Source: an uncultured Bacilli bacterium
Lineage (GTDB): Bacteria; Bacillota_I; Bacilli_A; RF39; UBA660
Reading direction: 5' to 3'
NCBI GenBank assembly: GCA_934167825.1
Contig: CAKPLY010000001.1
Coordinates: 5,508-69,507, forward strand
Length of the DNA: 64,000 nucleotides
Part shown: piece after piece, positions 17,694 through 50,750 of the stretch
Numbering within the stretch: position 1 is the stretch's first letter
How the letters are laid out: each line of letters opens with the position of its first letter
Made by a program: the position numbers and the translations under genes
Notes under the pieces: generated by a model
Told to the model about the DNA's origin: nothing
The model's database searches: none
Seen by the model: only the letters and a program-made list of their open reading frames with translations

Positions 17694-19796
17694 ATGAAAA
17701 GAGTAGTAAATTTTGTAGACAAGAAAGAATTAATAATAATAACAATACTTACATTTTTAATTGCACTAACAGGACTATTCGCAACGTATGCAATAGATAC
17801 TAGTTTAAGTTATAATGATACCACAGAGTATGATATGTCACTTAGTTTTGATTTATCAGCATCTACAAATAAACAAGTAACAATACCTGCAGGTAAAACA
17901 AAATTTTTTGATATAGATGTTAAAAATAGTAACAGTGGTACAATACAATATGGTATTGCATACTCTATGGTTACACCTTCAACATTACCTAATGGAGTAA
18001 CCATTGCTAAGTCTTGGAAAAGTGCAAATCCTCCAACTGGATTAATTAATGCAAACGCTACTTTGCCAGTAACAATAGCAGTAGAAAACACATCATCTAC
18101 AGATATTACAATATCTTTATCTATAATAAATGGATATGAAAAAGGTGGAGATTTAATTTTACCTAGCGGTAAAACTTTGATAACTGGTGAATTTGATGCA
18201 ACACCACCTGTAGAACCAAATGCGCCAGCATTAACAGATGCATTAATACCAATATTATATGAAAGAGATAGTATAATAATGAAAGCAGATTCAAAGGGAG
18301 ATGGAGTTACTGCTACCTGTGATAACTTAGGGGACTTAAATTTTGATGGAAGAATTGATGATAAAGATGTAAGTGCATTTTTGCCTGTTTTTCGAGACGG
18401 TTTTACTTTTCCTAATGTTGTAAAAGTATGTGCAGATGTTGATGGTGATGGTTTTGTTACAGAGGATGATATGAGGTTAATTAAAAATTATTATTATGGA
18501 GATGTGACTACTTTTCCAAAGGGTGAGCCATTGAGTACAGTAACTGGAACTGTATATATTACACCATGGTATGATTATGATAATAAACAATGGGCAAATG
18601 CAGTACTTGTAAGTGAGGCAAATAGACAGAAATATATATCCGCTGAACCTGGAACTGAAATTGCCGAAGAAGATATCCTAGCATTCTATGTATGGATACC
18701 AAGATACAAATATAAAGTATGGAATATAAATAAAGTAATAGGAACACAAAGTTATAACGCAGAAACTGCTGGTATAGATATAGTTTTTGAGGAAGGTACA
18801 AATTCTACTGGTACAATTAGTTGTACATATAGTTATGCAGCACCATCAAGTACCGCGGGAAGTCCAAACGAAACATGTACAGGAAGTAATGGGGACTATT
18901 ACACTCATCCAGCATTTACCTTTGGTAATCAAGAACTAACAGGATTTTGGATGGGAAAATTTGAACTATCAAGTAGTAATCCTACGACAGGTACTTCATA
19001 TGGTGGAGGAGAAACTACAACACTAACACCAAGAATATTACCAAATGTAACATCATGGAGATATAATACAGTATCTAACTATTGGAAAGTAATATATGAT
19101 ATGCAAACAAGTAATAATATATATGGACTTCCAACATCAAGAACAAATACTGATTCACATATGCTTACTAATATGGAGTGGGGAGCAGTAGCATATCTAA
19201 CTAATTCTAAATATGGAAGATGTACAAATGGAAGTTGTACAGAGGTATCAATGAATGGTTACGGAGAATATAGTAGATCTACAACTATGACAGGATGTGG
19301 TCCAATATCAAGTGGAAGTACAAGTTATGGAACAACATGTAATGCATATAATACAGAATTAGGGCAATTAGCTTCTACAACAGGTAATATTACGGGAGTA
19401 TATGATATGTCAGGAGGAGCATATGACTGTGTAATGGGTAATATGTCAAGGTGGAATGGAACATCATATACATATTATGAAAGAAGTGCGGGAACTAACT
19501 TTACATATAGTACAAATACTGCAAAATACCTAATACCATATGCATATGGAACAACAAGTAATAATCAAACAGCATATAATAGAGGAAGACTAGGAGATGC
19601 AACTGGTGAAATAGTAACATCTTCAGGTAATGGTTGGTATAATGACTTCGCAGGTTTTCCTAACACTGCCGGTTCTTGGTTTCGTCGCGGCGACGATTTC
19701 GCCGGTAGTAATGATGGTCTCTTCTGTTTCCTCAGCGGTGATGGCGCTAGTGACAGCAATTCTTCGGGGCGCGCCGTTTTATCCATAGCAACTTAG
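17694..19796 (+). CDS. large secreted/surface protein paralog 1: N-terminal signal anchor, internal dockerin type I repeat pair, C-terminal about 400-aa domain shared with paralog 2
   Basis: Hydrophobic N-terminus. Dockerin repeats DLNFDGRIDDKDVSAFL / DVDGDGFVTEDDMRLIKNYYYG. About 70% identity to the 62072-63955 product over the shared parts. Confidence 0.7.
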   Translation: MKRVVNFVDKKELIIITILTFLIALTGLFATYAIDTSLSYNDTTEYDMSLSFDLSASTNKQVTIPAGKTKFFDIDVKNSNSGTIQYGIAYSMVTPSTLPNGVTIAKSWKSANPPTGLINANATLPVTIAVENTSSTDITISLSIINGYEKGGDLILPSGKTLITGEFDATPPVEPNAPALTDALIPILYERDSIIMKADSKGDGVTATCDNLGDLNFDGRIDDKDVSAFLPVFRDGFTFPNVVKVCADVDGDGFVTEDDMRLIKNYYYGDVTTFPKGEPLSTVTGTVYITPWYDYDNKQWANAVLVSEANRQKYISAEPGTEIAEEDILAFYVWIPRYKYKVWNINKVIGTQSYNAETAGIDIVFEEGTNSTGTISCTYSYAAPSSTAGSPNETCTGSNGDYYTHPAFTFGNQELTGFWMGKFELSSSNPTTGTSYGGGETTTLTPRILPNVTSWRYNTVSNYWKVIYDMQTSNNIYGLPTSRTNTDSHMLTNMEWGAVAYLTNSKYGRCTNGSCTEVSMNGYGEYSRSTTMTGCGPISSGSTSYGTTCNAYNTELGQLASTTGNITGVYDMSGGAYDCVMGNMSRWNGTSYTYYERSAGTNFTYSTNTAKYLIPYAYGTTSNNQTAYNRGRLGDATGEIVTSSGNGWYNDFAGFPNTAGSWFRRGDDFAGSNDGLFCFLSGDGASDSNSSGRAVLSIAT

Positions 19797-21996: not shown

Positions 21997-22677
21997 ATGA
22001 GATTTAATGATATTTTAAAAGAAGAGAAACCTAGAGAGAGATTAGTTAAATATGGAGTAGAAAATTTGTCTAATGAGGAACTTTTAGCAATTATTTTAAA
22101 GACTGGTAGTAAGAAATATAATGTTAAGGAAGTAGCAAGTAATATATTATCTAGTTATGGAGATGTTAAGAACTTAAAAGATGTTAGAATTAATAATTTA
22201 ACTAAGATAGATGGAATAGGTAAGGTTAAGGCAATAGAGTTAATTGCTGCGATTGAACTTGGAAGAAGAGTATATTATGAAGAAGACTATAAAGATATGG
22301 TAACTCTTACTAATCCTAAAGTTATTATTAGGTATTTTAATAAGTTATTTAAGGGAGAAAATCAAGAGTGTTTTTATGTAGTATATTTAGATTCAAAGAA
22401 TAAGTATATAGATAAGAAACTTGTATTTAAGGGTATTTTAAATAAGAGTTTAATTCATCCTAGAGATATATTTAAGGAAGCATATTTACTTTCTGCATGT
22501 AATTTTATATGTATACATAATCATCCATCTGGAGATGCAACACCTAGTATGGAGGATATAAATGTTACTAAGATGCTAAGTGAGATAGGTAAGTTACATG
22601 GTATTAGACTTCTTGATCATATAATTATTGGTAATAATAATTATTATAGTTTTTATGAAGACAATAATTTAAATTAG
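21997..22677 (+). CDS. radC: RadC-like JAB/MPN domain protein (UPF0758)
   Basis: HhH N-terminal region and the JAMM motif HNHPSGDATPS. Confidence 0.8.
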   Translation: MRFNDILKEEKPRERLVKYGVENLSNEELLAIILKTGSKKYNVKEVASNILSSYGDVKNLKDVRINNLTKIDGIGKVKAIELIAAIELGRRVYYEEDYKDMVTLTNPKVIIRYFNKLFKGENQECFYVVYLDSKNKYIDKKLVFKGILNKSLIHPRDIFKEAYLLSACNFICIHNHPSGDATPSMEDINVTKMLSEIGKLHGIRLLDHIIIGNNNYYSFYEDNNLN

Positions 22678-22743: not shown

Positions 22744-25161
22744 ATGAAGAAATTAAATAATAAGGGTTATATGTTAATAGAAGTAATACTAGCATCTGTT
22801 ATTGCTTTTGTTATGGCATATTTTTTAATAGATATAACTATAAAGTTAATTAATAAGAATAATGATTATTATGTTGAAGGAACACTTTTAGCAGATAGAA
22901 ATATTATTACTAAAGAGATAATGGATGATGTTAATTCTAGAAATTTAGTTATGATTACTCAAAATAATAGTAAGAATTATACTTTTACTTTTGATGATGG
23001 AGAAAGTGTAGTTAAAAAGGATTTAATTTTTAGTGATGATAATGTTATTACTTATGGAGATTATAGTAAGAAATTAAATGATTTATTAACTTTTGGAGAT
23101 GTAGAGATTACTTATGATGAAAGAAATAAGATACTTACTTTTAAAGTTCCTGCGTATACTAATTATTCTACATTTAATTATGGGTTTAATTTTGTTATTC
23201 CTTATAAAGAGAATTTTGATATAGAATTACCTGGTAATTGTAGTGCTATTAAGGTTATATATGATGGTGTTACTAAGATATATGAAAATACTGCTAGTTT
23301 AGATTATGATACTTCAAATACTTATAAGGTTATGTTATCATCAGGTAGTTATGTAATTGATGCATATGGAGCGCAAGGTGCAAATAGTAGTGATAATACT
23401 TATACTGGTGGTAAGGGTGGTTTTGTAAGTGGAAAGATTACTTTTAATGGAAATACTACTTTAGATGTAAAGTTAGGTGGACAAGGTGGTTTTAATGGGG
23501 GTGGAGCTTCAACTGGTAGTGGATCTTTTAATGGTGGAGGTTCTACTACTGTTTATTTAGGAAGTAACAAACTTATTAGTGCTGCTGGAGGTGGCGGTGC
23601 ATCAGTAAATGGTAATGGTGAAGATGGTGGAACTGGGGACGCTACTGGAGGAAATAATGGTTCTAATGGTGGCGGAGGTTCTGGGAAGAATGAAGATGTA
23701 TCAACTGGAGAAGACTGTGACTGTAATGGAGATGATAACTGTTCATATACTGCGATGGGTGGACCTAAAGGGACTCAAGATTGGTGTTACTGTTCAGTAG
23801 AAATAGGTGTAAATAATTCAGCTCCAAGTGGATATAGTTGTGGTAGTGCAGATAAATATGGAATGAAAACTTGTGAAAAAGACTTTGCTGCTAGTTGTGA
23901 TAGAAATTATACTACTGTTAGTAGTGGCGGTAAGGGAGGAACAAGTGTTGTTAGTAGTAACTTTAGTGCTTCTAGTAAAAGAAGCGGGGTTAATATTGGT
24001 AATGGAAAATTTACTATAACTTGTACTAATTGCAGTGATTCACCAAAGACAGATAGTAATTCTTGTCCTAGTATAGTAGTTACGGATAGTATTTTAAATG
24101 AAAATAAAGTATTAAATAATATTACTTATGATTATGTAAATTCTGGTAGGCAAGAACTTACTTTAGAGTCTGGAAACTATATTTTAGAAGTATGGGGAGC
24201 ACAAGGTGGTAATTCTGTTAGAGGAAAAGGCGGATATGGTGGATACTCAAAGGGGACTTTAAATTTAGTTAGTACTACAAATGTGTTTGTATATGTTGGA
24301 GGTCAACCTTCTAAATATACAGGTGGATTTAATGGTGGGGGAAATGCTAATGGAGATAATAAAGATTATGTTAATGCTGCTGGAGGTGGAGCTAGTGATA
24401 TAAGACTAGGTACAGATTCTTTGTTTGCAAGAGTTATTGTTGCAGGAGGAGGCGGAGGAGCAGGTTACTATTATAATGGTGGTGCTGGAGGGGGTACTAC
24501 TGGAGAAAATGGTAAAAATCAAGGCGATTCTGCTTATAGTAGCACTCCTCCAGGAGAAGGTGGAACAGCAACTTCTGGTGGAAATAGTTACTATGGATAT
24601 GATAGTTTATTTGGAGATAAATATTTAGATAAGACAGGAAGTTATGGTGATATTGCAGGCTTTGGTGTAGGAGCAGGCTATAACTCGAAGAAAAGCACTG
24701 CTTACCGTGTAGGAGGCGGTGGTGGTTGGTACGGAGGTGGATACTCTAGTAATACCGGTGGTGGCGGTGGAAGTGGATATGTATATACCTCTTCAACAGA
24801 AGATGCTTACCCTAGCGGTTGTCTACTTAATTCAAACTATTATTTAACTGATACTTCAATGTCTAATGGAGAAAACCGTGGAGATGGTAGGGTTACTATA
24901 ACTACATTAGATAGATATGATTATAAAATACCTAGGATACTTGGACTTAGTGATTTAACTATTAATAAGGGAGACTTAGTAAATTTAAATACTGATATTA
25001 GTTATAAGTGTGAAAGTGATAGTCCAAATGGATGTACATATATTGGAGTTAAGTTTATTGATACTTCGATAATAGAAAAAGGAACATACTATTTATGTTA
25101 TGTAATTAAGAGTTCTAAGGGTATAGAATATAGTTATATTAGAAAACTTATAGTAAAATAA
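22744..25161 (+). CDS. giant prepilin-type (type IV pilin-like) glycine-rich protein with two tandem Gly-rich beta-domains
   Basis: Leader MKKLNNKG then YMLIEV (Gly -1, Glu +5, hydrophobic helix). Internal duplication (SGSYVIDAYGAQGANS.. and SGNYILEVWGAQGGNS..). SD aggaa precedes the ATG at 22744. Confidence 0.6.
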   Translation: MKKLNNKGYMLIEVILASVIAFVMAYFLIDITIKLINKNNDYYVEGTLLADRNIITKEIMDDVNSRNLVMITQNNSKNYTFTFDDGESVVKKDLIFSDDNVITYGDYSKKLNDLLTFGDVEITYDERNKILTFKVPAYTNYSTFNYGFNFVIPYKENFDIELPGNCSAIKVIYDGVTKIYENTASLDYDTSNTYKVMLSSGSYVIDAYGAQGANSSDNTYTGGKGGFVSGKITFNGNTTLDVKLGGQGGFNGGGASTGSGSFNGGGSTTVYLGSNKLISAAGGGGASVNGNGEDGGTGDATGGNNGSNGGGGSGKNEDVSTGEDCDCNGDDNCSYTAMGGPKGTQDWCYCSVEIGVNNSAPSGYSCGSADKYGMKTCEKDFAASCDRNYTTVSSGGKGGTSVVSSNFSASSKRSGVNIGNGKFTITCTNCSDSPKTDSNSCPSIVVTDSILNENKVLNNITYDYVNSGRQELTLESGNYILEVWGAQGGNSVRGKGGYGGYSKGTLNLVSTTNVFVYVGGQPSKYTGGFNGGGNANGDNKDYVNAAGGGASDIRLGTDSLFARVIVAGGGGGAGYYYNGGAGGGTTGENGKNQGDSAYSSTPPGEGGTATSGGNSYYGYDSLFGDKYLDKTGSYGDIAGFGVGAGYNSKKSTAYRVGGGGGWYGGGYSSNTGGGGGSGYVYTSSTEDAYPSGCLLNSNYYLTDTSMSNGENRGDGRVTITTLDRYDYKIPRILGLSDLTINKGDLVNLNTDISYKCESDSPNGCTYIGVKFIDTSIIEKGTYYLCYVIKSSKGIEYSYIRKLIVK

Positions 25162-25225
25162 TTAAAAATAATTGCTTAAAATAAAAATATATGATAGAAT
25201 GTAATTAAGGTATGGAGGATGAAAG

Positions 25226-25447
25226 ATGAGACTAAAATTAAATAACAAAGGTCAAACTTTAGTTGAATATGTACTAATTATATCTTTAATAACTGCAGTT
25301 GCAATAGGTCTTGTTAAAATATTTGGAGGATACTTACAAGATGCTATTACTAAGACGGGATGCCAAATAAGTGGTAAGGAATACGTTGAAGGTGCAAAAG
25401 TAGGGGAAGGTTATTGTAAGGGTGATGAAGGGAAATTATCTAGTTAG
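25226..25447 (+). CDS. Flp/Fap-type small pilin
   Basis: Leader MRLKLNNKG then QTLVEYVLI: G-x4-EY Flp motif plus hydrophobic helix. Strong SD ggagg. Confidence 0.55.
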   Translation: MRLKLNNKGQTLVEYVLIISLITAVAIGLVKIFGGYLQDAITKTGCQISGKEYVEGAKVGEGYCKGDEGKLSS

Positions 25448-25490
25448 ATAGTTTCTTTTTTATATATAAAAACTAGAAATATTAATATTT

Positions 25491-26321
25491 CTAGTTTTTG
25501 TTAATTCTATAGAAATTTATTTTTGGGGGGTTAAACAGTCTAAAGTTTACTCTACTTACTCCAATACCACTTGATATATACATTTTTGTACCATTTATAT
25601 TATAGTATTCTTCATAGTATTTAGTGGCATTTTTAGGTAAGAATGATTTTTTTAGGATAGGTATATTTACTTGACCATTATGGGAATGTCCTGATAGTAA
25701 TAGATTAGCATTTATACTTCTTAAATCACTTGCATAATCTGGTTCATGAAATAAAAGTATTTTATAGATATCTTCATTTACTATCATTTTTGATATATCG
25801 TCATCTGTAAAGTTTCCAGTACTTATTCCTCCAAGATATAATTTATTATTATTTTTACTATATATTATATCTACTTCGTTATTTAATAGTTTAAAGTTAG
25901 ATTCATTATAAATTCTATTTAATGTATCAATATCTATAGCATAATCGTGATTACCAATAACAGCGTATTTACCATATTTATAGTTTATGCTATTTAAGAA
26001 ATTTTTTAGTATAGTTATATCATCATCAGTAATATTACTATCTTTATCTATTAAGTCTCCAGTAAAAACTACGATGTCAGGATTAAGTAAATTTATTTCT
26101 TTAGATAATTTATTTAAATATTTTTCTGTTATTACTCTTTTATAATGGGTATCACTTATATGTACTATTTTTAGTCCATCAAAGTCATCGTTAATTTTAT
26201 TATCTATTATGGGTATTTCTTTAGTTACTAATCTATTTGTTTCAATGTATCTAGCATATAAGAGAGTTGATGTTACAATTATTATTACTAGTAAGATAAA
26301 TTTAATTATAAACTTCTTCAT
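25491..26321 (-). CDS. calcineurin-like metallophosphoesterase (YkuE-like), N-terminal signal/TM
   Basis: Metal-binding motifs GDLID, GNHD, GHSH. Confidence 0.75.
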   Translation of the reverse strand: MKKFIIKFILLVIIIVTSTLLYARYIETNRLVTKEIPIIDNKINDDFDGLKIVHISDTHYKRVITEKYLNKLSKEINLLNPDIVVFTGDLIDKDSNITDDDITILKNFLNSINYKYGKYAVIGNHDYAIDIDTLNRIYNESNFKLLNNEVDIIYSKNNNKLYLGGISTGNFTDDDISKMIVNEDIYKILLFHEPDYASDLRSINANLLLSGHSHNGQVNIPILKKSFLPKNATKYYEEYYNINGTKMYISSGIGVSRVNFRLFNPPKINFYRINKN

Positions 26322-27161: not shown

Positions 27162-29207
27162 ATGAATAATAGATTTAAATATATATTGTTTTTAGTAATT
27201 AGTTTATTTATATATAGTAATAATGTTTATGCGAAAGAGGGTTATATATCTTGTCAAGATGCTTCGATTGGACTTAATTTAAGAGATAATGTAAATGGTA
27301 ATGTAGTTAATTGGGTAGCGTGTGGTAATACTCTTGATGTTATTGATACTAATAGTGGTAGTACAAGTGGGGTATGTGATAAGTGGTATAAGATTAATTA
27401 TAAGAGTGAAGAATACTTTGCTTGTGGAGACTATATAACTTTAAGGGAAGAATTAACTGAAGAAGAAATTACTGATTATAGAAAGTATTTAAAAGATAAA
27501 GGATTTCCTGATAGTTATATTGAAGGATTAGTTAGTTTACATGAGAAACACCCTAAATGGAAGTTTGAAGTATTTAATGCTGATATAGAGTTTGGAAGCA
27601 TGGTAGAAATAGAAAATAATAAAAATGGTAAGAGTTTACTTTGGGATAGCAATGGTAGTTTTGATGGCTATAAATCATTAGAGAGTTGGAGTTATGATTA
27701 TTTAACAAATATATTTAATAGGAATTATTCTGGTGGAGGTGCAAACTGGTATGCTGCTAGTTTTAATACAATAGCGTATTATATGGATCCTAGAAATTTC
27801 TTTAATGAAAAACAAATATTTATGTTTGAGACTTTGGGTTATAATTCTAAAATTCATTTAAAAAGTGGTGTAGAAGCAATGCTTAAAGGAACTTTTATGG
27901 ATGGCAAATTAGCAGATACAGAAAATAATATTAGTTATGCTGATGCTTTTATGGATTCAGCGAAGAAGAATAATGTAAGTCCTTATGTACTTGTTTCTAG
28001 AGTAATACAAGAAGTTGGGGCACAAGGCAGTACTATTGTTAGTGGAACAGTAAGTGGATATGAAGGGTATTATAATTTTTATAATATTGGTGCTACTGGA
28101 GATCAAAGTCAAATTATTATTAATGGACTTAAACATGCTAAGGAAATGGGATGGGATAGTCCTTATAAAGCAATAGTAGGTGGTGCGTCTTTCTTAAGTG
28201 ATGATTATATTGATGAGGGACAAGATACTTTATATTTACAAAAATGGGATTTATTTGGGCCTTTATTTGGTAGACATCAATATCAACAGAATATACAAGC
28301 ACCAAGTACTGAAAGTATAAAAGCCTATAGTGGTTATAATAATACAGGGTTACTTGATAGTGAGATAGTATTTTCTATACCGGTATTTAAAAATAATTCA
28401 ATACCAACTTCTACTAAGTTAGATAATCCTGGGAATCCTAATAATTATTTAAAGAGTTTAAAAGTTAATGATATATATTTATTTGAAAGTGCTACACATG
28501 ATGTTAGTTTTGATTTAGAGTTTGATGAAGAAGTTACTTCGGTAAATATTAGTGCTACTAAGGTAAGTTCTAAATCTAGCATAAGTGGAATCGGTAGTGT
28601 TGCTTTAACTGGAGAAAAACAAAGTATTGTAGTTACTGTTGTTGCAGAAAATGGATCTGCTAGAGATTATGTTATTAATATAAAAAGAAATTTAACTCCA
28701 GTAAATCCAGATCCAACACCAGATCCTACGCCTGATCCTGAACCTGAGCCAGCACCAGAGCCTGTTTTAGAAAAAGAAATAAGTGAGATACTTAATTTAT
28801 TAGAAATAAAACATAATGATAATTATATATATGGATTTGATGTTAATACAAATATTGATAGTATAGTTAAAAAAATAAGTGAAGCATATAATTATGTAAG
28901 TGCTAGTGGAGTAGATAAAGATAACAATGTTAAAAGTAATAAGATTATATTTTCCGGAGACAAGATAGTTATTAAAACTTCTAAGGAAGAAAAGACATAT
29001 ACTATAGTTATTAGAGGGGATGTTAATGGTGATGGTAAGATTAGTGCAGTAGATTATGTATTTATAAAGAATCATATTATGAATACAAATAAATTAAGTA
29101 GTGATGGACTTATTTTTGCAGATGTAAATAAAGATGGCAAGGTAAGTGCGGTAGATTATGTACTTATAAAGAATCATATTATGAATACAAATAAAATTAC
29201 ACAATAA
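27162..29207 (+). CDS. secreted cell-wall hydrolase: SH3b domain, glucosaminidase-like domain, cadherin-like beta-sandwich, Pro/Thr/Asp/Glu linker, C-terminal dockerin type I pair
   Basis: Signal peptide. SH3b (GLNLRDNVNGNVV..WYKINY). YADAFMDSAKKNNVSPYVLVSRVIQEVG (glucosaminidase-like). PDPTPDPTPDPEPEPAPEP linker. GDVNGDGKISAVDYVFIKNHIMN / ADVNKDGKVSAVDYVLIKNHIMN. Confidence 0.7.
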   Translation: MNNRFKYILFLVISLFIYSNNVYAKEGYISCQDASIGLNLRDNVNGNVVNWVACGNTLDVIDTNSGSTSGVCDKWYKINYKSEEYFACGDYITLREELTEEEITDYRKYLKDKGFPDSYIEGLVSLHEKHPKWKFEVFNADIEFGSMVEIENNKNGKSLLWDSNGSFDGYKSLESWSYDYLTNIFNRNYSGGGANWYAASFNTIAYYMDPRNFFNEKQIFMFETLGYNSKIHLKSGVEAMLKGTFMDGKLADTENNISYADAFMDSAKKNNVSPYVLVSRVIQEVGAQGSTIVSGTVSGYEGYYNFYNIGATGDQSQIIINGLKHAKEMGWDSPYKAIVGGASFLSDDYIDEGQDTLYLQKWDLFGPLFGRHQYQQNIQAPSTESIKAYSGYNNTGLLDSEIVFSIPVFKNNSIPTSTKLDNPGNPNNYLKSLKVNDIYLFESATHDVSFDLEFDEEVTSVNISATKVSSKSSISGIGSVALTGEKQSIVVTVVAENGSARDYVINIKRNLTPVNPDPTPDPTPDPEPEPAPEPVLEKEISEILNLLEIKHNDNYIYGFDVNTNIDSIVKKISEAYNYVSASGVDKDNNVKSNKIIFSGDKIVIKTSKEEKTYTIVIRGDVNGDGKISAVDYVFIKNHIMNTNKLSSDGLIFADVNKDGKVSAVDYVLIKNHIMNTNKITQ

Positions 29208-29221
29208 TTAAGGAGGAATTT

Positions 29222-30529
29222 ATGAAAAAGATATTTAATTATATAATGTTTTCAGTGTTTATGTTTGTTATGTTTACTACAAATATACAAGCATATAGTT
29301 ATGAAATTACCAGTAAATCAATATATGCTGGGGAGTATGTAACTTTAACTATTGATGCATCAAATGACATTGGTAAGTTTGATATTACTTCTTCTAATAC
29401 AAATATAATTACAATAGAAAGCGGTAGTAGGTGGTTAGAAAAAGAAAGAGCAACTTTTAAGGTCGTTGCAAAAAAGGCAGGAAGTGCAAATATTACTATT
29501 ACTCCAACTGATGTTTCTACTAGTGAAGGCAAAGAAGTTACTAATCCTAAGGTTATTTCTATTACTGTTACTAATAAACCTGCACCACAAAAACCAGTAC
29601 AAACTCCAAAGTCTAGTAATAATTATTTAACTAGTTTAACTGTTGATGATTATTCTTTAGATAGTGATTTTGATAAAGAAAAGTTAGAGTATAGTGTTAC
29701 AGTAAAACCATTTACTAAAAGTATTAAGATTAATGCTCAAAAAGAAAATGATAAGGCTAATGTAAGTGGAGTTGGAGAAGTTAATTTAAATGATGGTGAT
29801 AATAAGTTTTCTATAGTAGTAACTGCAGAAAATAATGTTAAGAGAACATACGTACTTAATGTAAATGTACCTGTTTTAAAGGATATTGAAGTAGAAGTAG
29901 ATAATAAAAAGTATACTATTGTAAGAGAAGAAGGCAAGCTAGATTTAATCGAAGGATATACAAAGAAAAATATTAGTATAGATAATGAAGAAGATGTATT
30001 ATCATTTTATAGTGATGTTACTAAGTTTCAGTTAGTTATTTTAAAAGATAATGATGGAAATATGGATTATTATATATATGATAATGGTAAGTATACTAAA
30101 TATAAAGAGTATGATTTTTCTTCTGTTAGGATATGTATACTTGATAATAATAATATAGATAAAGATAAGTATTTAAAGACAGATCTTACTATTGGGGAAG
30201 ATAAGATTAATGCATATAAGTTAAAACTAAAAAGTAAGAGTAATACTACTTATGCACTTGATGATAAGTATTTAGATTATTATATAATATATGGAATTAA
30301 TGTTAAGACTGGTAATAAGGGATATTATTTATATGATAGAAAAGAGAATAGTGCAATAAGATATGATGAGGGATTACTTATAAATGAAGTGAGTACTGTA
30401 AGTAATAATGATAATTATAAGACATACTTTTATATATCTTTGATGGTATTTGGAGTAGTTATATTAACTATTGGTATTGTACTTATTGTTAAGGGTAGAA
30501 AAAACAAGAATAAAATTAATTTTAAGTAA
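29222..30529 (+). CDS. surface protein with cadherin-like beta-sandwich domain and C-terminal transmembrane anchor
   Basis: Signal peptide. NYLTSLTVDDYSL..YSVTV..VSGVGEVNLNDGDNKFSIVVTAENNVKRTYVLNVN. C-terminal TM plus KGRKNKNK. Confidence 0.6.
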   Translation: MKKIFNYIMFSVFMFVMFTTNIQAYSYEITSKSIYAGEYVTLTIDASNDIGKFDITSSNTNIITIESGSRWLEKERATFKVVAKKAGSANITITPTDVSTSEGKEVTNPKVISITVTNKPAPQKPVQTPKSSNNYLTSLTVDDYSLDSDFDKEKLEYSVTVKPFTKSIKINAQKENDKANVSGVGEVNLNDGDNKFSIVVTAENNVKRTYVLNVNVPVLKDIEVEVDNKKYTIVREEGKLDLIEGYTKKNISIDNEEDVLSFYSDVTKFQLVILKDNDGNMDYYIYDNGKYTKYKEYDFSSVRICILDNNNIDKDKYLKTDLTIGEDKINAYKLKLKSKSNTTYALDDKYLDYYIIYGINVKTGNKGYYLYDRKENSAIRYDEGLLINEVSTVSNNDNYKTYFYISLMVFGVVILTIGIVLIVKGRKNKNKINFK

Positions 30530-30854: not shown

Positions 30855-33800
30855 TTATTTTTCTTTTACTAATTTTTTCGGCTCTTCAATTTTGATATTA
30901 CTTTGTTCTAATGTTTCGATGTAACTTGTTACACTGCTATTTAGTACGTTTATTGTACCTTTAGCGTTATAAAAGTCATTTAATTTATCTAAAGTAATTT
31001 TTGCGTCATCAGCATTTTTATATAATAATGCTTTGAATAAATCCATAACATCTTTGGATAACTCAATGGTTCTTTTTTCATTTTCGATTCCTTGTCCTAT
31101 TAATAGTTCTGATCCTATTAATGGTAATAAGTCATCTCTTGCAGTTTCTAAAGCATTAATAGTAAGAAAGTGATTTACTATCATTTGATTTAATTTTACT
31201 AGTTCTTGATTTAATAGTTGGTTTGATGTAATAAATCTTTCTTTTTTGTTTTTTACTATTTGTAGTTGTGAAGAAACATCAAGATAATTTGAATATTCAA
31301 ATGGATTTGATGGATCAATAGTTTGTAATTTGTTTTCTAGTAATTTTATCATATCTATAGTTTTTAATAGAAATTCATAATTCTTTTTTGAATATTCACT
31401 TATATATTTTTTTAACTTATCGTAAGTAAGTAATTCTTTGGATAATAATTCTATGTTTTTTGATATTGCGTCTTTTAAAATATGGAAATTTTCTATTTTA
31501 ATATTTGATTCTTTTTCTCCGGATTCAACACTAAAGAGACTACTAAAAAATCCTTTTTTCTTTTCTTCAGGTTGATAACACTTGTTAACTAATTCATTAA
31601 TTGTTTCAACTGATTTTTCTGTACTATCACTATCAATTAATTTTTGTTGTTCTTGGTTTATGGTTTTAAAGTGACTTGTTAGAATGTTACCATAATTAAC
31701 TATATTAATTGTGCTTGTTAAATCTATTGAAGATACTTCGATGTTTTGCAAACTTTTAATACATTCACTTAATGTAGGTATATATTCTTTGCCTGTAATT
31801 ATTTCTTTTTGTAATATACTATAGTTTTCATCACTTAAATTACTGATGATTTTTAAGATTTTACTATTGTTTACTTCATTACTAAATAGTTTCTTTATAA
31901 TACTAGAAATAGAATAATCTTTTTCTTCAAGATATTTTTGGTAATTTAATCCTAATCTATAAGATGTTTCAGTACTTTTTATATTAGGGTTAGTAATATT
32001 TAAATACTCTAGTATTCTTTCTTTAGTTATATTATATTTTTTTAATGTCTTTGCTATAAATACTATATTATTATTTTTATCATCATCTATTTCTATAGTG
32101 TTATATGTATCAAAGAATGCTAAAATTAAAGATAGTTTTTCTTTGTCTAAATCTGTAATATTTGGTATTTTTTCTATTATAGTATTATATTTTATTGCAT
32201 TTGTTAAATATTCTTTGCTTAAACTAGAATTAGTATTTCTTAGCAAACTTTCACATCTTTGTTTAGTAGAATAATTTTCATATTGAGTATCTAGATCGTT
32301 AAAATCTTCATAGTTTTTTGATATATGATGTAAGAATCTTATTAGATATGTTCCATCATATAATTCTTTATTAAAAATATTTCTAAATATATGATATGGT
32401 GTTAAATCTTTTCTTTCTACTGAAATGTTATAACCTTTGAAAATGTAATCTAAGTAATTGTTGTATAATATTTCATTGAAATCTTTATCATTTGTTACAA
32501 CACTAGAAAAATACTGTTTATCATTTATAAGTCCTTTTTCTTTAAGAAAATCTTGTAATGATTTGTCATTTAATGTTGCATATAATATTGCAGCAACTTT
32601 TTTGTCTTCAGGACTTAAATTATTTAAAATTTTTTCTAATTCGGCATCTTGTTTTGCGATACATTTTAAATAATTAATTGTACTTGGTTTTAAATCAGTA
32701 TATAATTCTTTATATATAAAGTCTTGATGTTCTTGCTGTTTTCTTTCAGTGAATTCTTTTAATTCTTTAGTAATATCATCAATCTTTTTATCTTTTGATA
32801 AATCATTAAAGATGTTTTCTAGAACTAGACTATTACCGTTATTAAAAGTAATTTTATTTTCTTTTTGATTTATAGTTGTTGATTCATAAACACTTTTTAC
32901 TTTACTGAAACTAACTTTAGTACTTTCTAGTTCTTCTTTAGTGATATTGATACCTAGAAGATTAAATATTTTATCATAAGTTATGTCATGTTCTTCATAG
33001 AAGTTATATAAAGATTTGTTAGTAAATAGGTATGCTAAAGATATTATATCGTTATTATTCTTTAGATATTTTGTATTATCTTTCTTTTTACTTAGTATAA
33101 GAGTGTATGCTTTAGTTAAGTTAATTAAGACATTTTTGTCATTGTCAGTTATATTTTGCTCTTTTAGAAAATCATTTATTTTTATTTGTTCATCTCTTTC
33201 ATCAAGTAAGTCTAGGATATTATCTTTATATAAGTTATAACTTGATAGGATAGTTTCTACTATAGTACTATTTGTGGCATTTCTATTAAATAGAGTAGCA
33301 AATAATTCTCTAGTGGGATCTAATTTTATATTCTTTAAGCATTCTATATATGGTTGATAATATTTTTTTATTACAAGATAATTAGGTTTTAATGTAAGGT
33401 TAGATAAAACATCGTTGTATTTGGAAATTAATGATGTATCTATTTTTAATTTATTAATCATTTCTTTTATGTTGCTATCTTTACTTGTAAGAAAACTCAT
33501 AAATAATGATAATGCTGCAATGTCTTCTTTAGAGTTACAATTTGCAAAACAATTTTTTAAACTTGATAATTTTTCTTTATCATTATTTTCAGGATTAATA
33601 TATGCATTATATATTGAAGAAGCAGTTTCAATTAAATTTACGACATTTATTTGAATATTAGAAAATACTTCTTTTTTTAAATCGTTTTTAATTTTACTTT
33701 TTTCTTCCTCAATTATTTTCTCTATATTTAAATTATTATATTCTTCTTGTGTTATAAAATATTTATGAAAATAAAAGCTGCCATCCCTATATATTTCTGG

Positions 33801-34241
33801 ATCAAAAGTTGTGCTGTCTTTGTAAATGTTGTTAATTATGTCTAATGTAGTAAGTCCATAGTAATCTTCGACATTATTATATATTTGAAAATAATTTTTA
33901 TATGTATTAAAGGTTTCTTTTAGATTGTTTTTTTCAATATTTATTATTGTTTCCTTATATGATATTTCGACGTCATTGCGATCAACAAATTTTCCTTTTG
34001 CTAATTCTCTTGCGATATATTGATAATTATTTTTGCCATATAGTGCTTCAATAAACATTACGATTTCTTTTAAAAAAGTACTACCAATTATATATTTATA
34101 AATATATTGATCTAATTTAACGACGATATACAAATCTGAATTATAAGTTCGTAAGTGATATAGATATTTTAAAACTGTGTTTACATATGTTTTTGTTTCT
34201 TTTGGTATTATTTCCATAAATTCTTCATAACTTATATTCAT
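30855..34241 (-). CDS. large (1128 aa) Lys/Asn/Glu/Ile-rich predicted helical protein of unknown function
   Basis: Long ORF with native codon usage, strong SD agaggggg, promoter TTGACA-17-TATCAT. No recognisable catalytic motif. Confidence 0.6.
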   Translation of the reverse strand: MNISYEEFMEIIPKETKTYVNTVLKYLYHLRTYNSDLYIVVKLDQYIYKYIIGSTFLKEIVMFIEALYGKNNYQYIARELAKGKFVDRNDVEISYKETIINIEKNNLKETFNTYKNYFQIYNNVEDYYGLTTLDIINNIYKDSTTFDPEIYRDGSFYFHKYFITQEEYNNLNIEKIIEEEKSKIKNDLKKEVFSNIQINVVNLIETASSIYNAYINPENNDKEKLSSLKNCFANCNSKEDIAALSLFMSFLTSKDSNIKEMINKLKIDTSLISKYNDVLSNLTLKPNYLVIKKYYQPYIECLKNIKLDPTRELFATLFNRNATNSTIVETILSSYNLYKDNILDLLDERDEQIKINDFLKEQNITDNDKNVLINLTKAYTLILSKKKDNTKYLKNNNDIISLAYLFTNKSLYNFYEEHDITYDKIFNLLGINITKEELESTKVSFSKVKSVYESTTINQKENKITFNNGNSLVLENIFNDLSKDKKIDDITKELKEFTERKQQEHQDFIYKELYTDLKPSTINYLKCIAKQDAELEKILNNLSPEDKKVAAILYATLNDKSLQDFLKEKGLINDKQYFSSVVTNDKDFNEILYNNYLDYIFKGYNISVERKDLTPYHIFRNIFNKELYDGTYLIRFLHHISKNYEDFNDLDTQYENYSTKQRCESLLRNTNSSLSKEYLTNAIKYNTIIEKIPNITDLDKEKLSLILAFFDTYNTIEIDDDKNNNIVFIAKTLKKYNITKERILEYLNITNPNIKSTETSYRLGLNYQKYLEEKDYSISSIIKKLFSNEVNNSKILKIISNLSDENYSILQKEIITGKEYIPTLSECIKSLQNIEVSSIDLTSTINIVNYGNILTSHFKTINQEQQKLIDSDSTEKSVETINELVNKCYQPEEKKKGFFSSLFSVESGEKESNIKIENFHILKDAISKNIELLSKELLTYDKLKKYISEYSKKNYEFLLKTIDMIKLLENKLQTIDPSNPFEYSNYLDVSSQLQIVKNKKERFITSNQLLNQELVKLNQMIVNHFLTINALETARDDLLPLIGSELLIGQGIENEKRTIELSKDVMDLFKALLYKNADDAKITLDKLNDFYNAKGTINVLNSSVTSYIETLEQSNIKIEEPKKLVKEK

Positions 34242-35080: not shown

Positions 35081-35944
35081 ATGGATATAGATAGTTATTT
35101 AGATTATTTAAGGTGTGTTAAGAAGTATTCTAGTAATACAGTAAATTCATATAATGAAGATATAACAGAATATATAAGTGTTATTAATAAAGATATAAAA
35201 AAAGTATGCGAAGAAGATATAAAGAAATATTTAGAATATTTATATAACAAGAATATTAGTAAGAGTAGTATATCTAGGAAGTTAAGTAGTGTAAGAGGGT
35301 TATATAATTATTTATATACTAATAATAAGATAGATACTAATATATTTAGTGATATACATAATCCTAAAAAAAATAAGACATTACCTAATTTTTTAACAGA
35401 TAAGGAAGTTAGTATGCTTCTTGATTTAAAGATAGATAGTATATATTTTTCTAGAAATAGTTTGATTATAGAGTTATTTTATTCTACAGGGATAAGAGTT
35501 AGTGAGTTAGTTAATATAACACTAGAAGATATTAATATGCATGATAAGACTATTAAGATATTAGGTAAGGGTAGTAAAGAAAGAATAGTGTATTTTGGGA
35601 AGTATTGTTTTGATAAGTTAAATAAATATATTAATGATGAAAGAAGACTATTTGATAAGTATAATAGTAAGTATTTAATACTAAATAAGAATGGTAATAA
35701 GATTACTACTAGACAGATAGAGAATATTATTAATTATTATACTTTTAGGTGTGGATTAAATAAGAAGATAAGTCCTCATGTACTTAGACATACTTTTGCT
35801 ACTAGTATGTTAAATAATGGGGCAGATATAGTTAGTGTTAAAGAGTATTTAGGACATGAAAGTATTAGTACTACTAGTATTTATACACATGTTACTAATG
35901 AAAAGATTAGGGATGTATATAATAATTGTCATCCAAGAAGTTAG
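35081..35944 (+). CDS. tyrosine site-specific recombinase (XerC/XerD-like)
   Basis: SAM-like N-domain. Catalytic R..HxxR..Y (HVLRHTFATSMLNNGADIVSVKEYLGHESISTTSIYTHV). Confidence 0.75.
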   Translation: MDIDSYLDYLRCVKKYSSNTVNSYNEDITEYISVINKDIKKVCEEDIKKYLEYLYNKNISKSSISRKLSSVRGLYNYLYTNNKIDTNIFSDIHNPKKNKTLPNFLTDKEVSMLLDLKIDSIYFSRNSLIIELFYSTGIRVSELVNITLEDINMHDKTIKILGKGSKERIVYFGKYCFDKLNKYINDERRLFDKYNSKYLILNKNGNKITTRQIENIINYYTFRCGLNKKISPHVLRHTFATSMLNNGADIVSVKEYLGHESISTTSIYTHVTNEKIRDVYNNCHPRS

Positions 35945-45430: not shown

Positions 45431-45729
45431 AATACAAACAAAAGTTTGTATTTTTTAATTAATTTCATTGACATAAACAAGTGTTTGTGTTATTCTTATA
45501 TTGTAGGAAGGGTGATAAGTATGAAATTAATTAAAAATAATAAAGGAGCAATAATATTTTATCTAATTATAATCGTTACGGGATTATTATTAAAGGTTAG
45601 TAATGATAATTATATAATGGATAAAGAAAGTAATAATACTTTTACCTATAATGATTCTTTAAATTAATACATTAGATATAGTGTATTTTTTTATTTTATG
45701 TTATAATTAGATAGAAAGAAGTTGATAAG

Positions 45730-48827: not shown

Positions 48828-49406
48828 ATGAAAAGGGTATTAGGAGATAATAAACGTTCATTAATTACTATTTTTGGTGTTGTTTTACTGATAGTTATTG
48901 TTGCTGGAGTTACTTATGCTTTATTTGAAGCAAATGCTAATAAGGAAGATGCAGTTTCTGGAGATACTTGTTTTTCTATTAAGTACACTAAGGGGCAAAA
49001 TATAAGTGGAGAATTAGAAATGGGTGCAAGTTATACTACTGGTAAGAGTACAGATATAGTTATTGGTTTAGATAATTCAAGTAGTAATGCTAATAGATGT
49101 AGTAATATTATTGGTAAGGGAACGATATATTTAACTACTACTAGTTCTAATTTAGACTATACTAAAACTAATATTCCTTTAAGATATAGTGTTGTTGTAG
49201 GGTCTACAGTTAAAGCAACTGGTGCAATTAATGGAACAGAAAATCAAGTATTATATGAAAACTTTGATGTTACTGCGACTAGTGTTACATATAAGGTGTA
49301 CATTTGGTATGATCAAAGTAAAGATGATATTAATGATTTTAGCGATATAACATTTGCTGGATATATACATGCAAGTGTAGTAGGTAAATCTACAATAACA
49401 AGTTAA
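48828..49406 (+). CDS. membrane-anchored Ser/Thr-rich beta-rich protein (192 aa), unknown function
   Basis: N-terminal TM anchor. No motif recognised. Confidence 0.4.
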   Translation: MKRVLGDNKRSLITIFGVVLLIVIVAGVTYALFEANANKEDAVSGDTCFSIKYTKGQNISGELEMGASYTTGKSTDIVIGLDNSSSNANRCSNIIGKGTIYLTTTSSNLDYTKTNIPLRYSVVVGSTVKATGAINGTENQVLYENFDVTATSVTYKVYIWYDQSKDDINDFSDITFAGYIHASVVGKSTITS

Positions 49407-49433: not shown

Positions 49434-50393
49434 ATGACAAATATTAATGTTGAAGTTGGAGAGTTAATGAGACTTAGTTCTAGAAGTGAAGAATTAAATA
49501 GTGATATATCAAGTACTTTTAATGGAATAAATAATGTGCTTGATAACATATCTGGAATAGTTAGATCTGATACTCTAACAGGTGCTAATGATATACAAAA
49601 AGATGGGGTTAATACCTTAATGGTAAGAATAGATGAAAACTTAAGAAATATTAAGATATTCTTAGATAATCAAATTAAGAATTATACTGTGTCAGTAGAA
49701 GATGCACTTAATTCTTTGAATACACTTATTGCAGCGATAAATGGTGCTTATGGAGCAAATAGTGGAAAGAGTTATACTAGTTTTACTGCTAATAAATCTA
49801 CAAGTGATAATGTTAGTGTAGAGTCTAGTGTTCAAGGTAAGAAGGTAGAAACTAATTCTTCAACTACATCTACAGAAAAGAATTATACAGTTAGTAGTAC
49901 ACCTTATAATGCTAATACTAGTATAAATGCTGTTAATCCGGATGCTAAAACTTCTAGTGATAATATGAATAAAAATCTTGATGCTCTTGGTACATGGGAT
50001 AATGTATCTGGTACATATGATTTCTTCAAAGAAAAGGGGTTAACTGATGAACAAATTGCAGGTATTATGGGTAATGCATACGCTGAAAGTAAATTTAAGC
50101 TCGATGCAAAAAATCCTAATTCTTCTGCAACAGGTATATTTCAATGGTTGAATGGTAGACAACCTAGTGATTGGAGTTTAAATGGACAACTTGAACATGC
50201 TTGGAATGAAATAGCAAATACTAGATATAATGGTAAAGTAATAAGCAAGTTACAAGAATGTACTACTCCTAGTGATGCTGCTTATTCTTTTGCAAAGTGG
50301 TTCGAAGGATATACTGAAAATGTTTCAACGAGACAAAGTTATGCTGAAGCGTTTTATGACTATATAAAAGATAGAAATGGTGTTAAAGGTTAA
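49434..50393 (+). CDS. two-domain protein: N-terminal about 105-aa helical (WXG100/LXG-like) domain + C-terminal phage-tail-lysozyme-like peptidoglycan hydrolase domain
   Basis: C-terminal AGIMGNAYAESKF...ATGIFQWLNGRQ...QLEHAWNEI...AYSFAKWFEGY matches the phage tail tip lysozyme pattern (GN..AESG..GI.QW.G.R). The N-domain is paralogous to the 50415-50750 product. Confidence 0.55.
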   Translation: MTNINVEVGELMRLSSRSEELNSDISSTFNGINNVLDNISGIVRSDTLTGANDIQKDGVNTLMVRIDENLRNIKIFLDNQIKNYTVSVEDALNSLNTLIAAINGAYGANSGKSYTSFTANKSTSDNVSVESSVQGKKVETNSSTTSTEKNYTVSSTPYNANTSINAVNPDAKTSSDNMNKNLDALGTWDNVSGTYDFFKEKGLTDEQIAGIMGNAYAESKFKLDAKNPNSSATGIFQWLNGRQPSDWSLNGQLEHAWNEIANTRYNGKVISKLQECTTPSDAAYSFAKWFEGYTENVSTRQSYAEAFYDYIKDRNGVKG

Positions 50394-50414
50394 TAAAAAT
50401 AAGGTAGGTGGAAT

Positions 50415-50750
50415 ATGGCAAATATTAATGTTGAAATTGGAGAGCTAATAAGACTTAGTTCTAGGAGTGAAGATATTAATAGTGATATTAAGAGTACTTT
50501 TAATGGGATAAATAATGTACTTGATAATATAACTAGTATAGTTAGATCTGATACTTTAACGGGTGCTAATCAAATGCAAAAAGAAAATGTTAATTCTTTA
50601 ATGACAAGTATTGATAGTAATTTAAATAATATTAAGATGTTTTTAGATAATCAAATTAAGAATTATACAGTTTCAGTAGATGATGCATTAGATTCATTAA
50701 ATAGATTAATTATGTCAATTAATTCAGCGTATGGTGGTATTAATAATTAA
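50415..50750 (+). CDS. standalone paralog of the N-terminal helical domain of the 49434-50393 product (111 aa)
   Basis: About 75% identity over 105 aa (MANINVEIGELIRLSSRSEDINSDIKSTFNGINNVLDN...). Confidence 0.6.
   Translation: MANINVEIGELIRLSSRSEDINSDIKSTFNGINNVLDNITSIVRSDTLTGANQMQKENVNSLMTSIDSNLNNIKMFLDNQIKNYTVSVDDALDSLNRLIMSINSAYGGINN

Follow-up and report, generated by a model that had tools for sequence, protein, structure and literature searches.

In a 64-kb stretch of AT-rich chromosomal DNA (GC ~25%) from an uncultured Bacilli bacterium (contig CAKPLY010000001.1; hereafter the window), two pilin-like genes follow one another on the plus strand, separated by a 64-bp spacer. The first (22744-25161) encodes an 805-amino-acid (aa) protein with two glycine-rich domains (GRDs), and the second (25226-25447) a 73-aa Flp-like protein. 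Both products start with a leader ending in KLNNKG, which precedes the sequence xxLxE and a hydrophobic helix: the large protein begins with MKKLNNKG followed by YMLIEVILASVIAF, and the small one with MRLKLNNKG followed by QTLVEYVLIISLI. The former displays all elements of a class III signal, that is, a basic leader, Gly at -1, Glu at +5, and ~20 hydrophobic residues (MKKLNNKG followed by YMLIEVILASVIAFVMAYFLI), and the latter combines the Flp motif G/xxxxEY with a hydrophobic helix in a precursor that falls within the 50-80 aa range (KG followed by QTLVEYVLIISLITAVAIGLV). An earlier, sequence-only reading of the window had pointed to class III signals with nearly identical leaders on both products, which is what the translations contain. 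Among 27 sequences homologous to the N-terminus of the large protein, residues N5, N6, K7, G8, Y9, M10, L11, and E13 never vary, and the same holds for N6, G9, Q10, T11, L12, V13, E14, and Y15 in 28 Flp homologs; the likeness to a prepilin leader is therefore not due to chance. A six-frame regular-expression scan of the entire 64 kb for G-x4-E plus a hydrophobic stretch recovered these two gene starts, two in-frame artefacts within the large gene, and three unrelated matches without a prepilin leader, but no further pilin-like gene start. The features assigned to the pair are the following.

22744-25161, plus strand: open reading frame (ORF) of the 805-aa predicted modular type IV pilin (pilin module, GRD1, GRD2, Ig-like domain), with Pfam PF12810 at E 2.1e-55
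22744-22767, plus strand: leader MKKLNNKG, predicted to be cleaved after Gly8 to give a mature N-terminus YMLIE with Glu at +5
22744-23238, plus strand: predicted pilin module (aa 1-165), an N-terminal alpha-helix followed by a small beta-sheet; stand-alone homologs end here
23287-24021, plus strand: GRD1 (aa 182-426), first PF12810 stretch and internal repeat with GRD2
24094-24723, plus strand: hypervariable, apparently recombined GRD2 segment (aa 451-660), from identity blocks and synonymous divergence (dS) relative to the sister strain L177
24115-24903, plus strand: GRD2 (aa 458-720), predicted complete ALK/LTK-type TNF-like plus glycine-rich (TG) fold, from PF12810 and Foldseek
24913-25158, plus strand: predicted C-terminal beta-sandwich (Ig-like; aa 724-805), with model strands at a predicted local distance difference test (pLDDT) score of 71-83
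25214-25219, plus strand: GGAGGA, ribosome-binding site of flp, 6 nt ahead of its start codon
25226-25447, plus strand: flp, 73-aa predicted Flp/Tad (type IVc) prepilin, from the G/xxxxEY motif, a family profile match, and orthologs in tad operons
25226-25252, plus strand: flp leader MRLKLNNKG, with a predicted mature N-terminus QTLVEY...

The start of the large gene at 22744 is the one used in public gene calls (P0001, 100% identity, present on six public contigs), and another in-frame ATG lies 9 nt upstream (22735). When aa 1-165 were searched alone, the matches comprised 120 stand-alone proteins of 118-201 aa, mostly 135-200 aa, which have the same leader and the same end. An AlphaFold2 model built on the family alignment consists of a helix (residues 6-64) and strands (residues 68-161) with a mean pLDDT of 78.7, a predicted shape resembling the pilin 'lollipop'. 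The module also gave a weak NCBIfam match to ComGE (E 0.013). Its ortholog P0355 (L011, L012) is the third gene of a contiguous pilin trio, whose products are a TIGR02532-positive ComGC-like protein (KGFTLIE, 115 aa), a weakly ComGD-like protein (KGFMMAE, 149 aa), and the weakly ComGE-like ortholog itself (KGYMLVE, 135 aa). Against PDB sequences, a profile of the module produced noise only and a phmmer search with the entire large protein no match.

The body of the large protein matches PF12810 (ALK_LTK_GRD) in two stretches, with 188.8 bits versus a gathering cut-off of 24.5, and contains an internal repeat in which aa 182-426 and 458-720 are 29% identical (E 1e-28). An acidic, Cys-rich insert (aa ~290-441) takes the place of the second half of GRD1, whose model is of moderate confidence over aa 193-290 and of low confidence for the insert. 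GRD2 aligns to profile positions 2-243 of 243 (aa 471-722), and its model, with pLDDT mostly >90, retrieved the ALK/LTK structures 7nx3, 7nx1, and 7lrz in a Foldseek search at E ~1e-6 and probability 1.00, among 21 ALK/LTK chains at E <=1.6e-4. Both the Pfam assignment and structure prediction thus agree with the earlier proposal that the body of the protein is made of two tandem ALK-type Gly-rich domains. GRD2 shares its predicted fold and the full PF12810 profile with the ALK/LTK TG domain (7nx1, 7nx3, 7lrz), but identity is just 14-19%, the context is bacterial or phage, with neither a kinase nor an ALKAL-type ligand, and the GRDs occur here in tandem, the first one bearing the Cys-rich insert. 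In a Foldseek search, the C-terminal domain resembled Big_3 and Rib domains weakly (TM score ~0.5, target-normalised; E 0.16-0.3) and is ~97% identical between strains overall.

The pilin leader was found in only 6 of the 120 listed whole-protein homologs (P0001-3, P0009, P0080, P0090), most of the others being ~900-aa leaderless proteins that start with MSNIKTGDILNFDYTG. One leaderless double-GRD protein of 879 aa (P0107) is encoded in the tail and lysis region of a prophage (L175, L176, 1-18600), between tail-fibre genes and a GH25/CHAP endolysin gene, and the gene preceding it yielded weak Mtd_N and Phage_fiber_rpt matches. A fold search of BFVD with the model further retrieved 64 viral predicted structures at E <=1e-3 (best 5e-29), some of them annotated as tail fibre, minor tail protein, or virion structural protein. 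The P0107 context and the BFVD matches therefore suggest that the module attached to the pilin is also part of the host-recognition apparatus of phages from the same habitat. The prophage and phage proteins have tandem GRDs in common with the protein studied here (37-50% local identity), but lack a class III leader and a pilin module, and are prophage-encoded rather than paired with flp on the chromosome. By tblastn, the large protein matched nothing in 50,697 phage genomes, a result that the low-complexity filter may have caused. The possibility that the pair is itself prophage cargo was rejected, since two strains carry it in syntenic chromosomal DNA, flanked by radC and a metallophosphoesterase gene.

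Two GRD homologs (P0082, P0099) carry ...STYALFT leaders in place of the pilin leader. Pilin leader, ...STYALFT-type signal, and leaderless phage proteins considered together, the GRD module would therefore be exported by at least three routes. Within the window, a similar leader was noted in a 192-aa protein (48828-49406) whose N-terminus, ...IVAGVTYALFEANANK, recalls signal peptides of the SipW/TasA type. The L175/L176 prophage also contains, between the fibre genes and the endolysin gene, a 451-aa gene with a weak radical-SAM match.

Comparison with the syntenic strain L177 uncovered marked variation in the large protein, which is only 88% identical between the two strains, while neighbouring proteins are 96-99.6% identical. 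Over 50-aa blocks, identity dropped to 36-76% within aa 451-650 and was 88-100% in all other blocks; dS was 0.65 in the variable GRD2 segment and 0.08-0.17 in its flanks. Nearly all divergence falls within aa 451-660, which together with the high dS indicates cassette replacement by recombination, as expected of an exposed, specificity-determining surface, and identifies GRD2 as a putative hypervariable cassette recombined between sister strains. A diversity-generating retroelement was rejected as the source of this variation, as the window encodes no reverse transcriptase and a dS of 0.65 fits allele replacement rather than targeted mutagenesis. In a related genome (L008, 3806-5005), a reverse transcriptase (RVT_1) gene, which may belong to a diversity-generating retroelement, lies in a prophage tail region beside a gene for a DUF859 protein and near that genome's flp.

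The small protein alone gave sub-threshold Pfam matches to Class_IIIsignal (E 4.8e-4) and Flp_Fap (PF04964; E 1.9e-3), the latter with 18.4 bits and thus short of the gathering cut-off of 32.2; precomputed PF04964 matches are available for many of its orthologs. The family is very tightly conserved: of its >600 clusters, the 120 listed show identities of 72-100%, and its further invariant residues are G34-G35-Y36, D39, T42-K43, C46, C64, and G66-D67. A profile of 28 family members matched solved Tad pilins, namely PilA of Caulobacter crescentus (8u1k, E 1.9e-6) and a Flp family type IVb pilin (8u2b, E 1.1e-5), with the alignments in register from mature residue 2. As in those proteins, the G/xxxxEY processing motif is followed by a hydrophobic N-terminal helix; the solved pilins are 45 aa long, however, and the Flp described here is extended at its C-terminus by ~20 residues, among them an invariant Cys pair and a GD motif. 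Judged by these sequence signatures, the 73-aa protein is a genuine Flp pilin, the predicted major subunit of a Tad (type IVc) pilus. It had previously been described as a minimal Flp pilin, of which Flp stands and 'minimal' does not: the mature protein would be ~64 aa long and contains a C-terminal two-Cys loop with the conserved Cys46-Cys64 pair, absent from the 45-aa solved pilins. The gene is 100% identical between the window strain and L177, though neighbouring genes differ, and the ratio of nonsynonymous to synonymous substitution rates (dN/dS) for the orphan flp is 0.07-0.27 with respect to eleven relatives, which shows that purifying selection acts on orphan flp genes.

A scan of one genome per GTDB species identified 176 flp loci, the best 80 of which were examined for tad genes over up to 10 kb on each side, contig permitting. 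All 80 derive from uncultured gut metagenome-assembled genomes, mostly labelled Bacilli or Tenericutes by their depositors, other depositor labels including Clostridium sp. CAG:302, CAG:762, and CAG:914, Firmicutes CAG:321, Erysipelotrichaceae, and more. In only five of these loci (L031, L035, L047, L059, L065) is flp, with orthologs 70-73% identical, the first gene of an operon that continues with genes for TadE (PF07811), a Tad/TadE-like protein, an AAA_31 ParA-like protein (TadZ), T2SSE (TadA), and two T2SSF proteins (TadB and TadC); the L031 and L035 operons scored E 1e-10 to 9e-13 for TadE PF07811 and E ~1e-62 for T2SSE. In the other 75, tad genes were absent, and the lone flp resides in varied, housekeeping contexts, such as after murG-murB-ftsQ or between sirA and spoIIGA-sigE. 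Conversely, a search of metagenome contigs with a TadA alignment yielded 80 tad operons whose TadA is 68-84% identical to the query. Of the 66 such loci that hold tadE upstream of tadZ, 59 have tadE as their first gene, with no flp seen upstream; flp does precede tad genes in L095-L097, L116, L120, and L168. Together, these counts indicate that a flp-less tad operon with a distant flp is the normal layout, and the split of tad and flp is the rule in this lineage. One of the metagenomic loci (L140) contains, directly before tadE, a gene for an 840-aa surface protein with a membrane anchor.

In Bifidobacterium breve, a monoderm gut commensal, the Tad pilus is a gut colonisation factor and tadV lies apart from the tad locus, but flp stays inside it, unlike here; we know of no GRD modular pilin in that species. 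More generally, Denise et al. (2019) described tadV as a possible 'loner', that is, a gene that may be separately encoded (PMC6668835). The same study called scattered Tad loci 'very rare', in contrast to the lineage investigated here, in most genomes of which flp is detached from the tad operon.

The order GRD-pilin gene then flp was found in four places: the window, the syntenic L177, L003 (P0090), and L004 (P0080); in L003, the gene upstream is efp and not radC. GRD-pilin genes are therefore associated with other pilin genes, that is, with flp here and with the trio in the case of the stand-alone ortholog, and no machinery genes are linked to them. In other species (L038, L042, L048, L075, L079), flp lies ~70-930 bp from genes for GFxxxE pilins. 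The leader KLN(N/K/R)KG is common to Flp, the second TadE-like protein (MNKLNNKG followed by QVLVTF), the GFxxxE pilins, and the GRD-pilin family, which would fit a single prepilin peptidase that processes every pilin class in the lineage; sharing of the peptidase is documented in other systems (PMC6668835). Another large pilin was observed in L033 (5486-7225), a 579-aa, TIGR02532-positive GFxxxE protein (MKEKRGFTLIELLAV) encoded 2.8 kb upstream of that genome's flp.

No terminator-like structure was found in the 64-bp spacer between the large gene and flp. A candidate flp promoter was read by eye in this region; it scores below the threshold of a consensus scan and is of low confidence. Downstream of flp, a hairpin likely terminates transcription from both sides, namely of flp and of the metallophosphoesterase gene that converges on it. 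Both flanking genes are those named in the sequence-only reading.

21997-22677: radC, flanking the large pilin gene
25172-25200, plus strand: candidate flp promoter, with hexamers TTGCTT and TAGAAT spaced by 17 nt and a TG located one base before TAGAAT
25467-25500, no strand: 15-bp perfect AT-rich hairpin with U-runs on both sides (-13.2 kcal/mol, z = -3.2)
25491-26321, minus strand: metallophosphoesterase gene, convergent with flp

The remainder of the window contains Firmicutes-type housekeeping genes, among them dnaG, sigA, uvrC, secDF, ftsW/rodA, radC, leuS, murG, murB, alaS, and pnp, and the ~5.6 kb further upstream, available from an assembly carrying the same genes (L178), contains housekeeping genes only. 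Just downstream of the pilin pair, 27162-29207 and 29222-30529 encode a pair of surface proteins with cadherin-like beta-sandwich and dockerin type I domains, which recurs in related genomes (L005-L007). At 17694-19796 and 62072-63955, the window encodes large secreted paralogs of 700 and 627 aa, both of which start with MKxVxNFVDKKELIIITILTFLIALTGLFATYAIDTS and have a C-terminal region in common (YYTHPAFTFG...GFWMGKFE). The 700-aa copy also has a dockerin and is absent from the syntenic sister strain L177. Equally absent from the otherwise syntenic L177 is the gene at 30855-34241 (minus strand) for a 1128-aa Asn/Lys-rich protein with no Pfam match, which is therefore a strain-specific insertion; an xerC/D-like integrase gene (35081-35944) adjoins it. 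A phage-tail-lysozyme-domain protein followed by a 111-aa helical protein (49434-50750) and, in L013 (5122-7781), a 187-aa helical protein and a 571-aa protein encoded upstream of a stand-alone pilin-module gene may represent secretion-related toxin-like cassettes. Finally, a 48-aa peptide at 45521-45667 (MKLIKNNKGAIIFYLIIIVTGLL...) with a KNNKG leader was discounted as a pilin, as it has Tyr and not Glu at +5 and a single weak relative (L021, 58% over 24 aa); a small membrane protein is its probable identity.

We consider it reasonably likely that the locus is a two-gene pilin cassette, consisting of the Flp major subunit and a modular GRD minor pilin and assembled by machinery encoded elsewhere, the two proteins probably being a filament and adhesin pair. 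Their class III signal peptides would take both precursors into the membrane, and an unlinked A24 prepilin peptidase would cleave them after the Gly of KLNNKG. An unlinked TadZ/A/B/C machine, which in this lineage would correspond to the flp-less tadE-tadE/G-tadZ-tadA-tadB-tadC operon, would then polymerise Flp; from the relatives, we infer the presence of tad genes and of the peptidase in this genome as well. Co-assembled into the same filament, the bulky GRD-pilin may sit at its tip and act as an adhesin, by analogy with modular pilins (PMC8179133), and the recombining GRD2 cassette may confer strain-specific binding and adhesion. Since GRD and Ig-like modules are otherwise used by prophage tail fibres, those of the pilin most likely bind a ligand as well, as this analogy suggests. 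The earlier view of the pair as orphan cargo for a system encoded elsewhere is backed at the level of the lineage only, flp-less tad operons and tad-less flp genes being the norm in relatives.

Several observations weigh against this interpretation. As had already been stated for pilus machinery, a Pfam search of all 46 ORFs of >=100 aa returned no T2SSE ATPase, T2SSF platform protein, or A24 peptidase in the window, and neither tad/pil/com machinery nor an A24 peptidase was found when the ~5.6 kb upstream were included. Nor did a regular expression (G-x-G-D-x-K in hydrophobic ORFs) detect a prepilin peptidase in 2.4 Mb of related loci, although it is too crude to establish absence. The pilin module matched neither N_methyl (PF07963) nor TIGR02532 (Pfam E<=0.01, NCBIfam E<=0.1), the latter being reached by other pilins of the lineage; such a match is a detection signature, rather than a mechanistic requirement. 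A Foldseek search of the module against PDB returned no significant pilin, the best being Streptococcus sanguinis PilB (7ba2, probability 0.69, E 0.2). Its weak similarity to ComGE and ComGD places the module tentatively in a Com/type IV pilus (T4P)-like minor-pilin class and not with TadE/F, and the two genes would therefore represent two pilin classes, whose co-assembly is putative. Besides, the tad operons of the lineage already encode two TadE-like minor pilins, and no homolog of the module occurs in any tad locus examined. To our knowledge, a ligand is known for no bacterial or phage GRD.

Two arrangements compete above all: the GRD-pilin may be carried by the Flp filament, or by a second, Com/T4P-like one made of GFxxxE pilins. 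That Flp belongs to a Tad pilus and the GRD-pilin to such a second filament, their adjacency reflecting shared regulation or genomic drift, is a possible but doubtful account: the stand-alone ortholog of the module is found behind ComGC-like and ComGD-like pilins with no flp nearby, tad operons have minor pilins of their own in place of the module, and pilin genes are generally scattered in the lineage, but the adjacency of GRD-pilin gene and flp recurs in at least three genomic contexts or species, flp recurs beside GFxxxE pilins too, no terminator separates the two genes, and no locus examined (local neighbourhoods only) contained a PilB- or ComGA-type ATPase. We regard as rather unlikely the proposal that a single Tad machine and one peptidase handle all pilin classes, so that the Flp filament is capped by a Com/T4a-type modular GRD pilin; such a pilus would, if real, be a cross-class hybrid, and recombination with the prophage GRD pool would exchange its tip specificity. 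The large protein might instead remain unassembled, its N-terminal helix serving as the membrane anchor of a cell-surface glycine-rich adhesin, as the lack of nearby machinery, of N_methyl profile matches, and of a significant pilin fold would allow. This is improbable, for a plain anchor needs neither the invariant Gly at -1 and Glu at +5 nor a leader identical to that of bona fide lineage pilins, and the homologs are stand-alone, pilin-sized proteins of 135-200 aa, one of them in a three-gene pilin cluster. Even less credible is that lineage or strain has lost the machinery and that both genes are decaying relics or in non-pilus use. Most flp loci do lack tad genes, and the window and its upstream extension revealed no machinery for this genome, yet flp is unchanged between strains and constrained across species, several strains and species retain an intact 805-aa ORF, and flp-less tad operons are abundant in the same lineage.

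The two-gene cassette that we favour combines parts that each have precedents. A modular pilin is defined as a pilin module joined via a linker to a domain that is not confined to type IV pilus biology (PMC8179133), and the large protein, with its predicted module at aa 1-165, PF12810 twice, and an Ig-like domain, has this architecture. Raynaud et al. (2021) described the S. sanguinis modular pilins PilB (pilin plus vWA) and PilC (pilin plus lectin), proposed a tip-adhesin role for modular pilins, and listed in Dataset S1 IPR012902-PF12810 (2 proteins), IPR012902-PF12810 x3 (1 protein), and a PF12810-containing PilY1 (PMC8179133). The description of the 805-aa protein as an unusually large pilin was accordingly right as to a large pilin-like protein and not as to its being unusual, since modular pilins are a known class and pilin-PF12810 fusions were already catalogued. 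S. sanguinis PilB is also the pilin that came closest to the module in the fold search, short of significance. With respect to the S. sanguinis proteins, the cargo here consists of two GRD/TG domains and an Ig-like domain, and the gene is paired with that of a Flp pilin rather than located within a pil operon; with respect to the catalogued modular pilins, the module escapes the IPR012902/N_methyl signature (Tyr at +1, YMLIE). Catalogued pilin-PF12810 proteins, known Flp/Tad pilins, unlinked peptidases, and multi-locus systems mean that both parts are of kinds already described. What is distinctive is the combination of an N_methyl-invisible module, a cargo of tandem GRDs and an Ig-like domain that prophage tail fibres share, a recombining GRD2, and, within a widespread lineage of uncultured gut bacteria, the conserved pairing with a Flp that is extended and encoded apart from tad genes.

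No concept is overturned by these findings, modular pilins, orphan pilin genes, and shared prepilin peptidases all being documented. Their bearing is on a lineage of abundant, uncultured gut Bacilli (with the depositor labels Tenericutes, Mycoplasmatota, CAG:302, CAG:321, and similar), in which a strongly conserved Flp, present in at least 176 species-level genomes, stands here beside a strain-variable adhesin candidate made of phage receptor-binding-type domains. The pair points to a means of attachment to the host, to fibre, or to other microbes. It also offers a natural case for asking how Tad works when the gene of the major pilin is unlinked from its machinery, and what bacterial and phage ALK-type glycine-rich domains bind.

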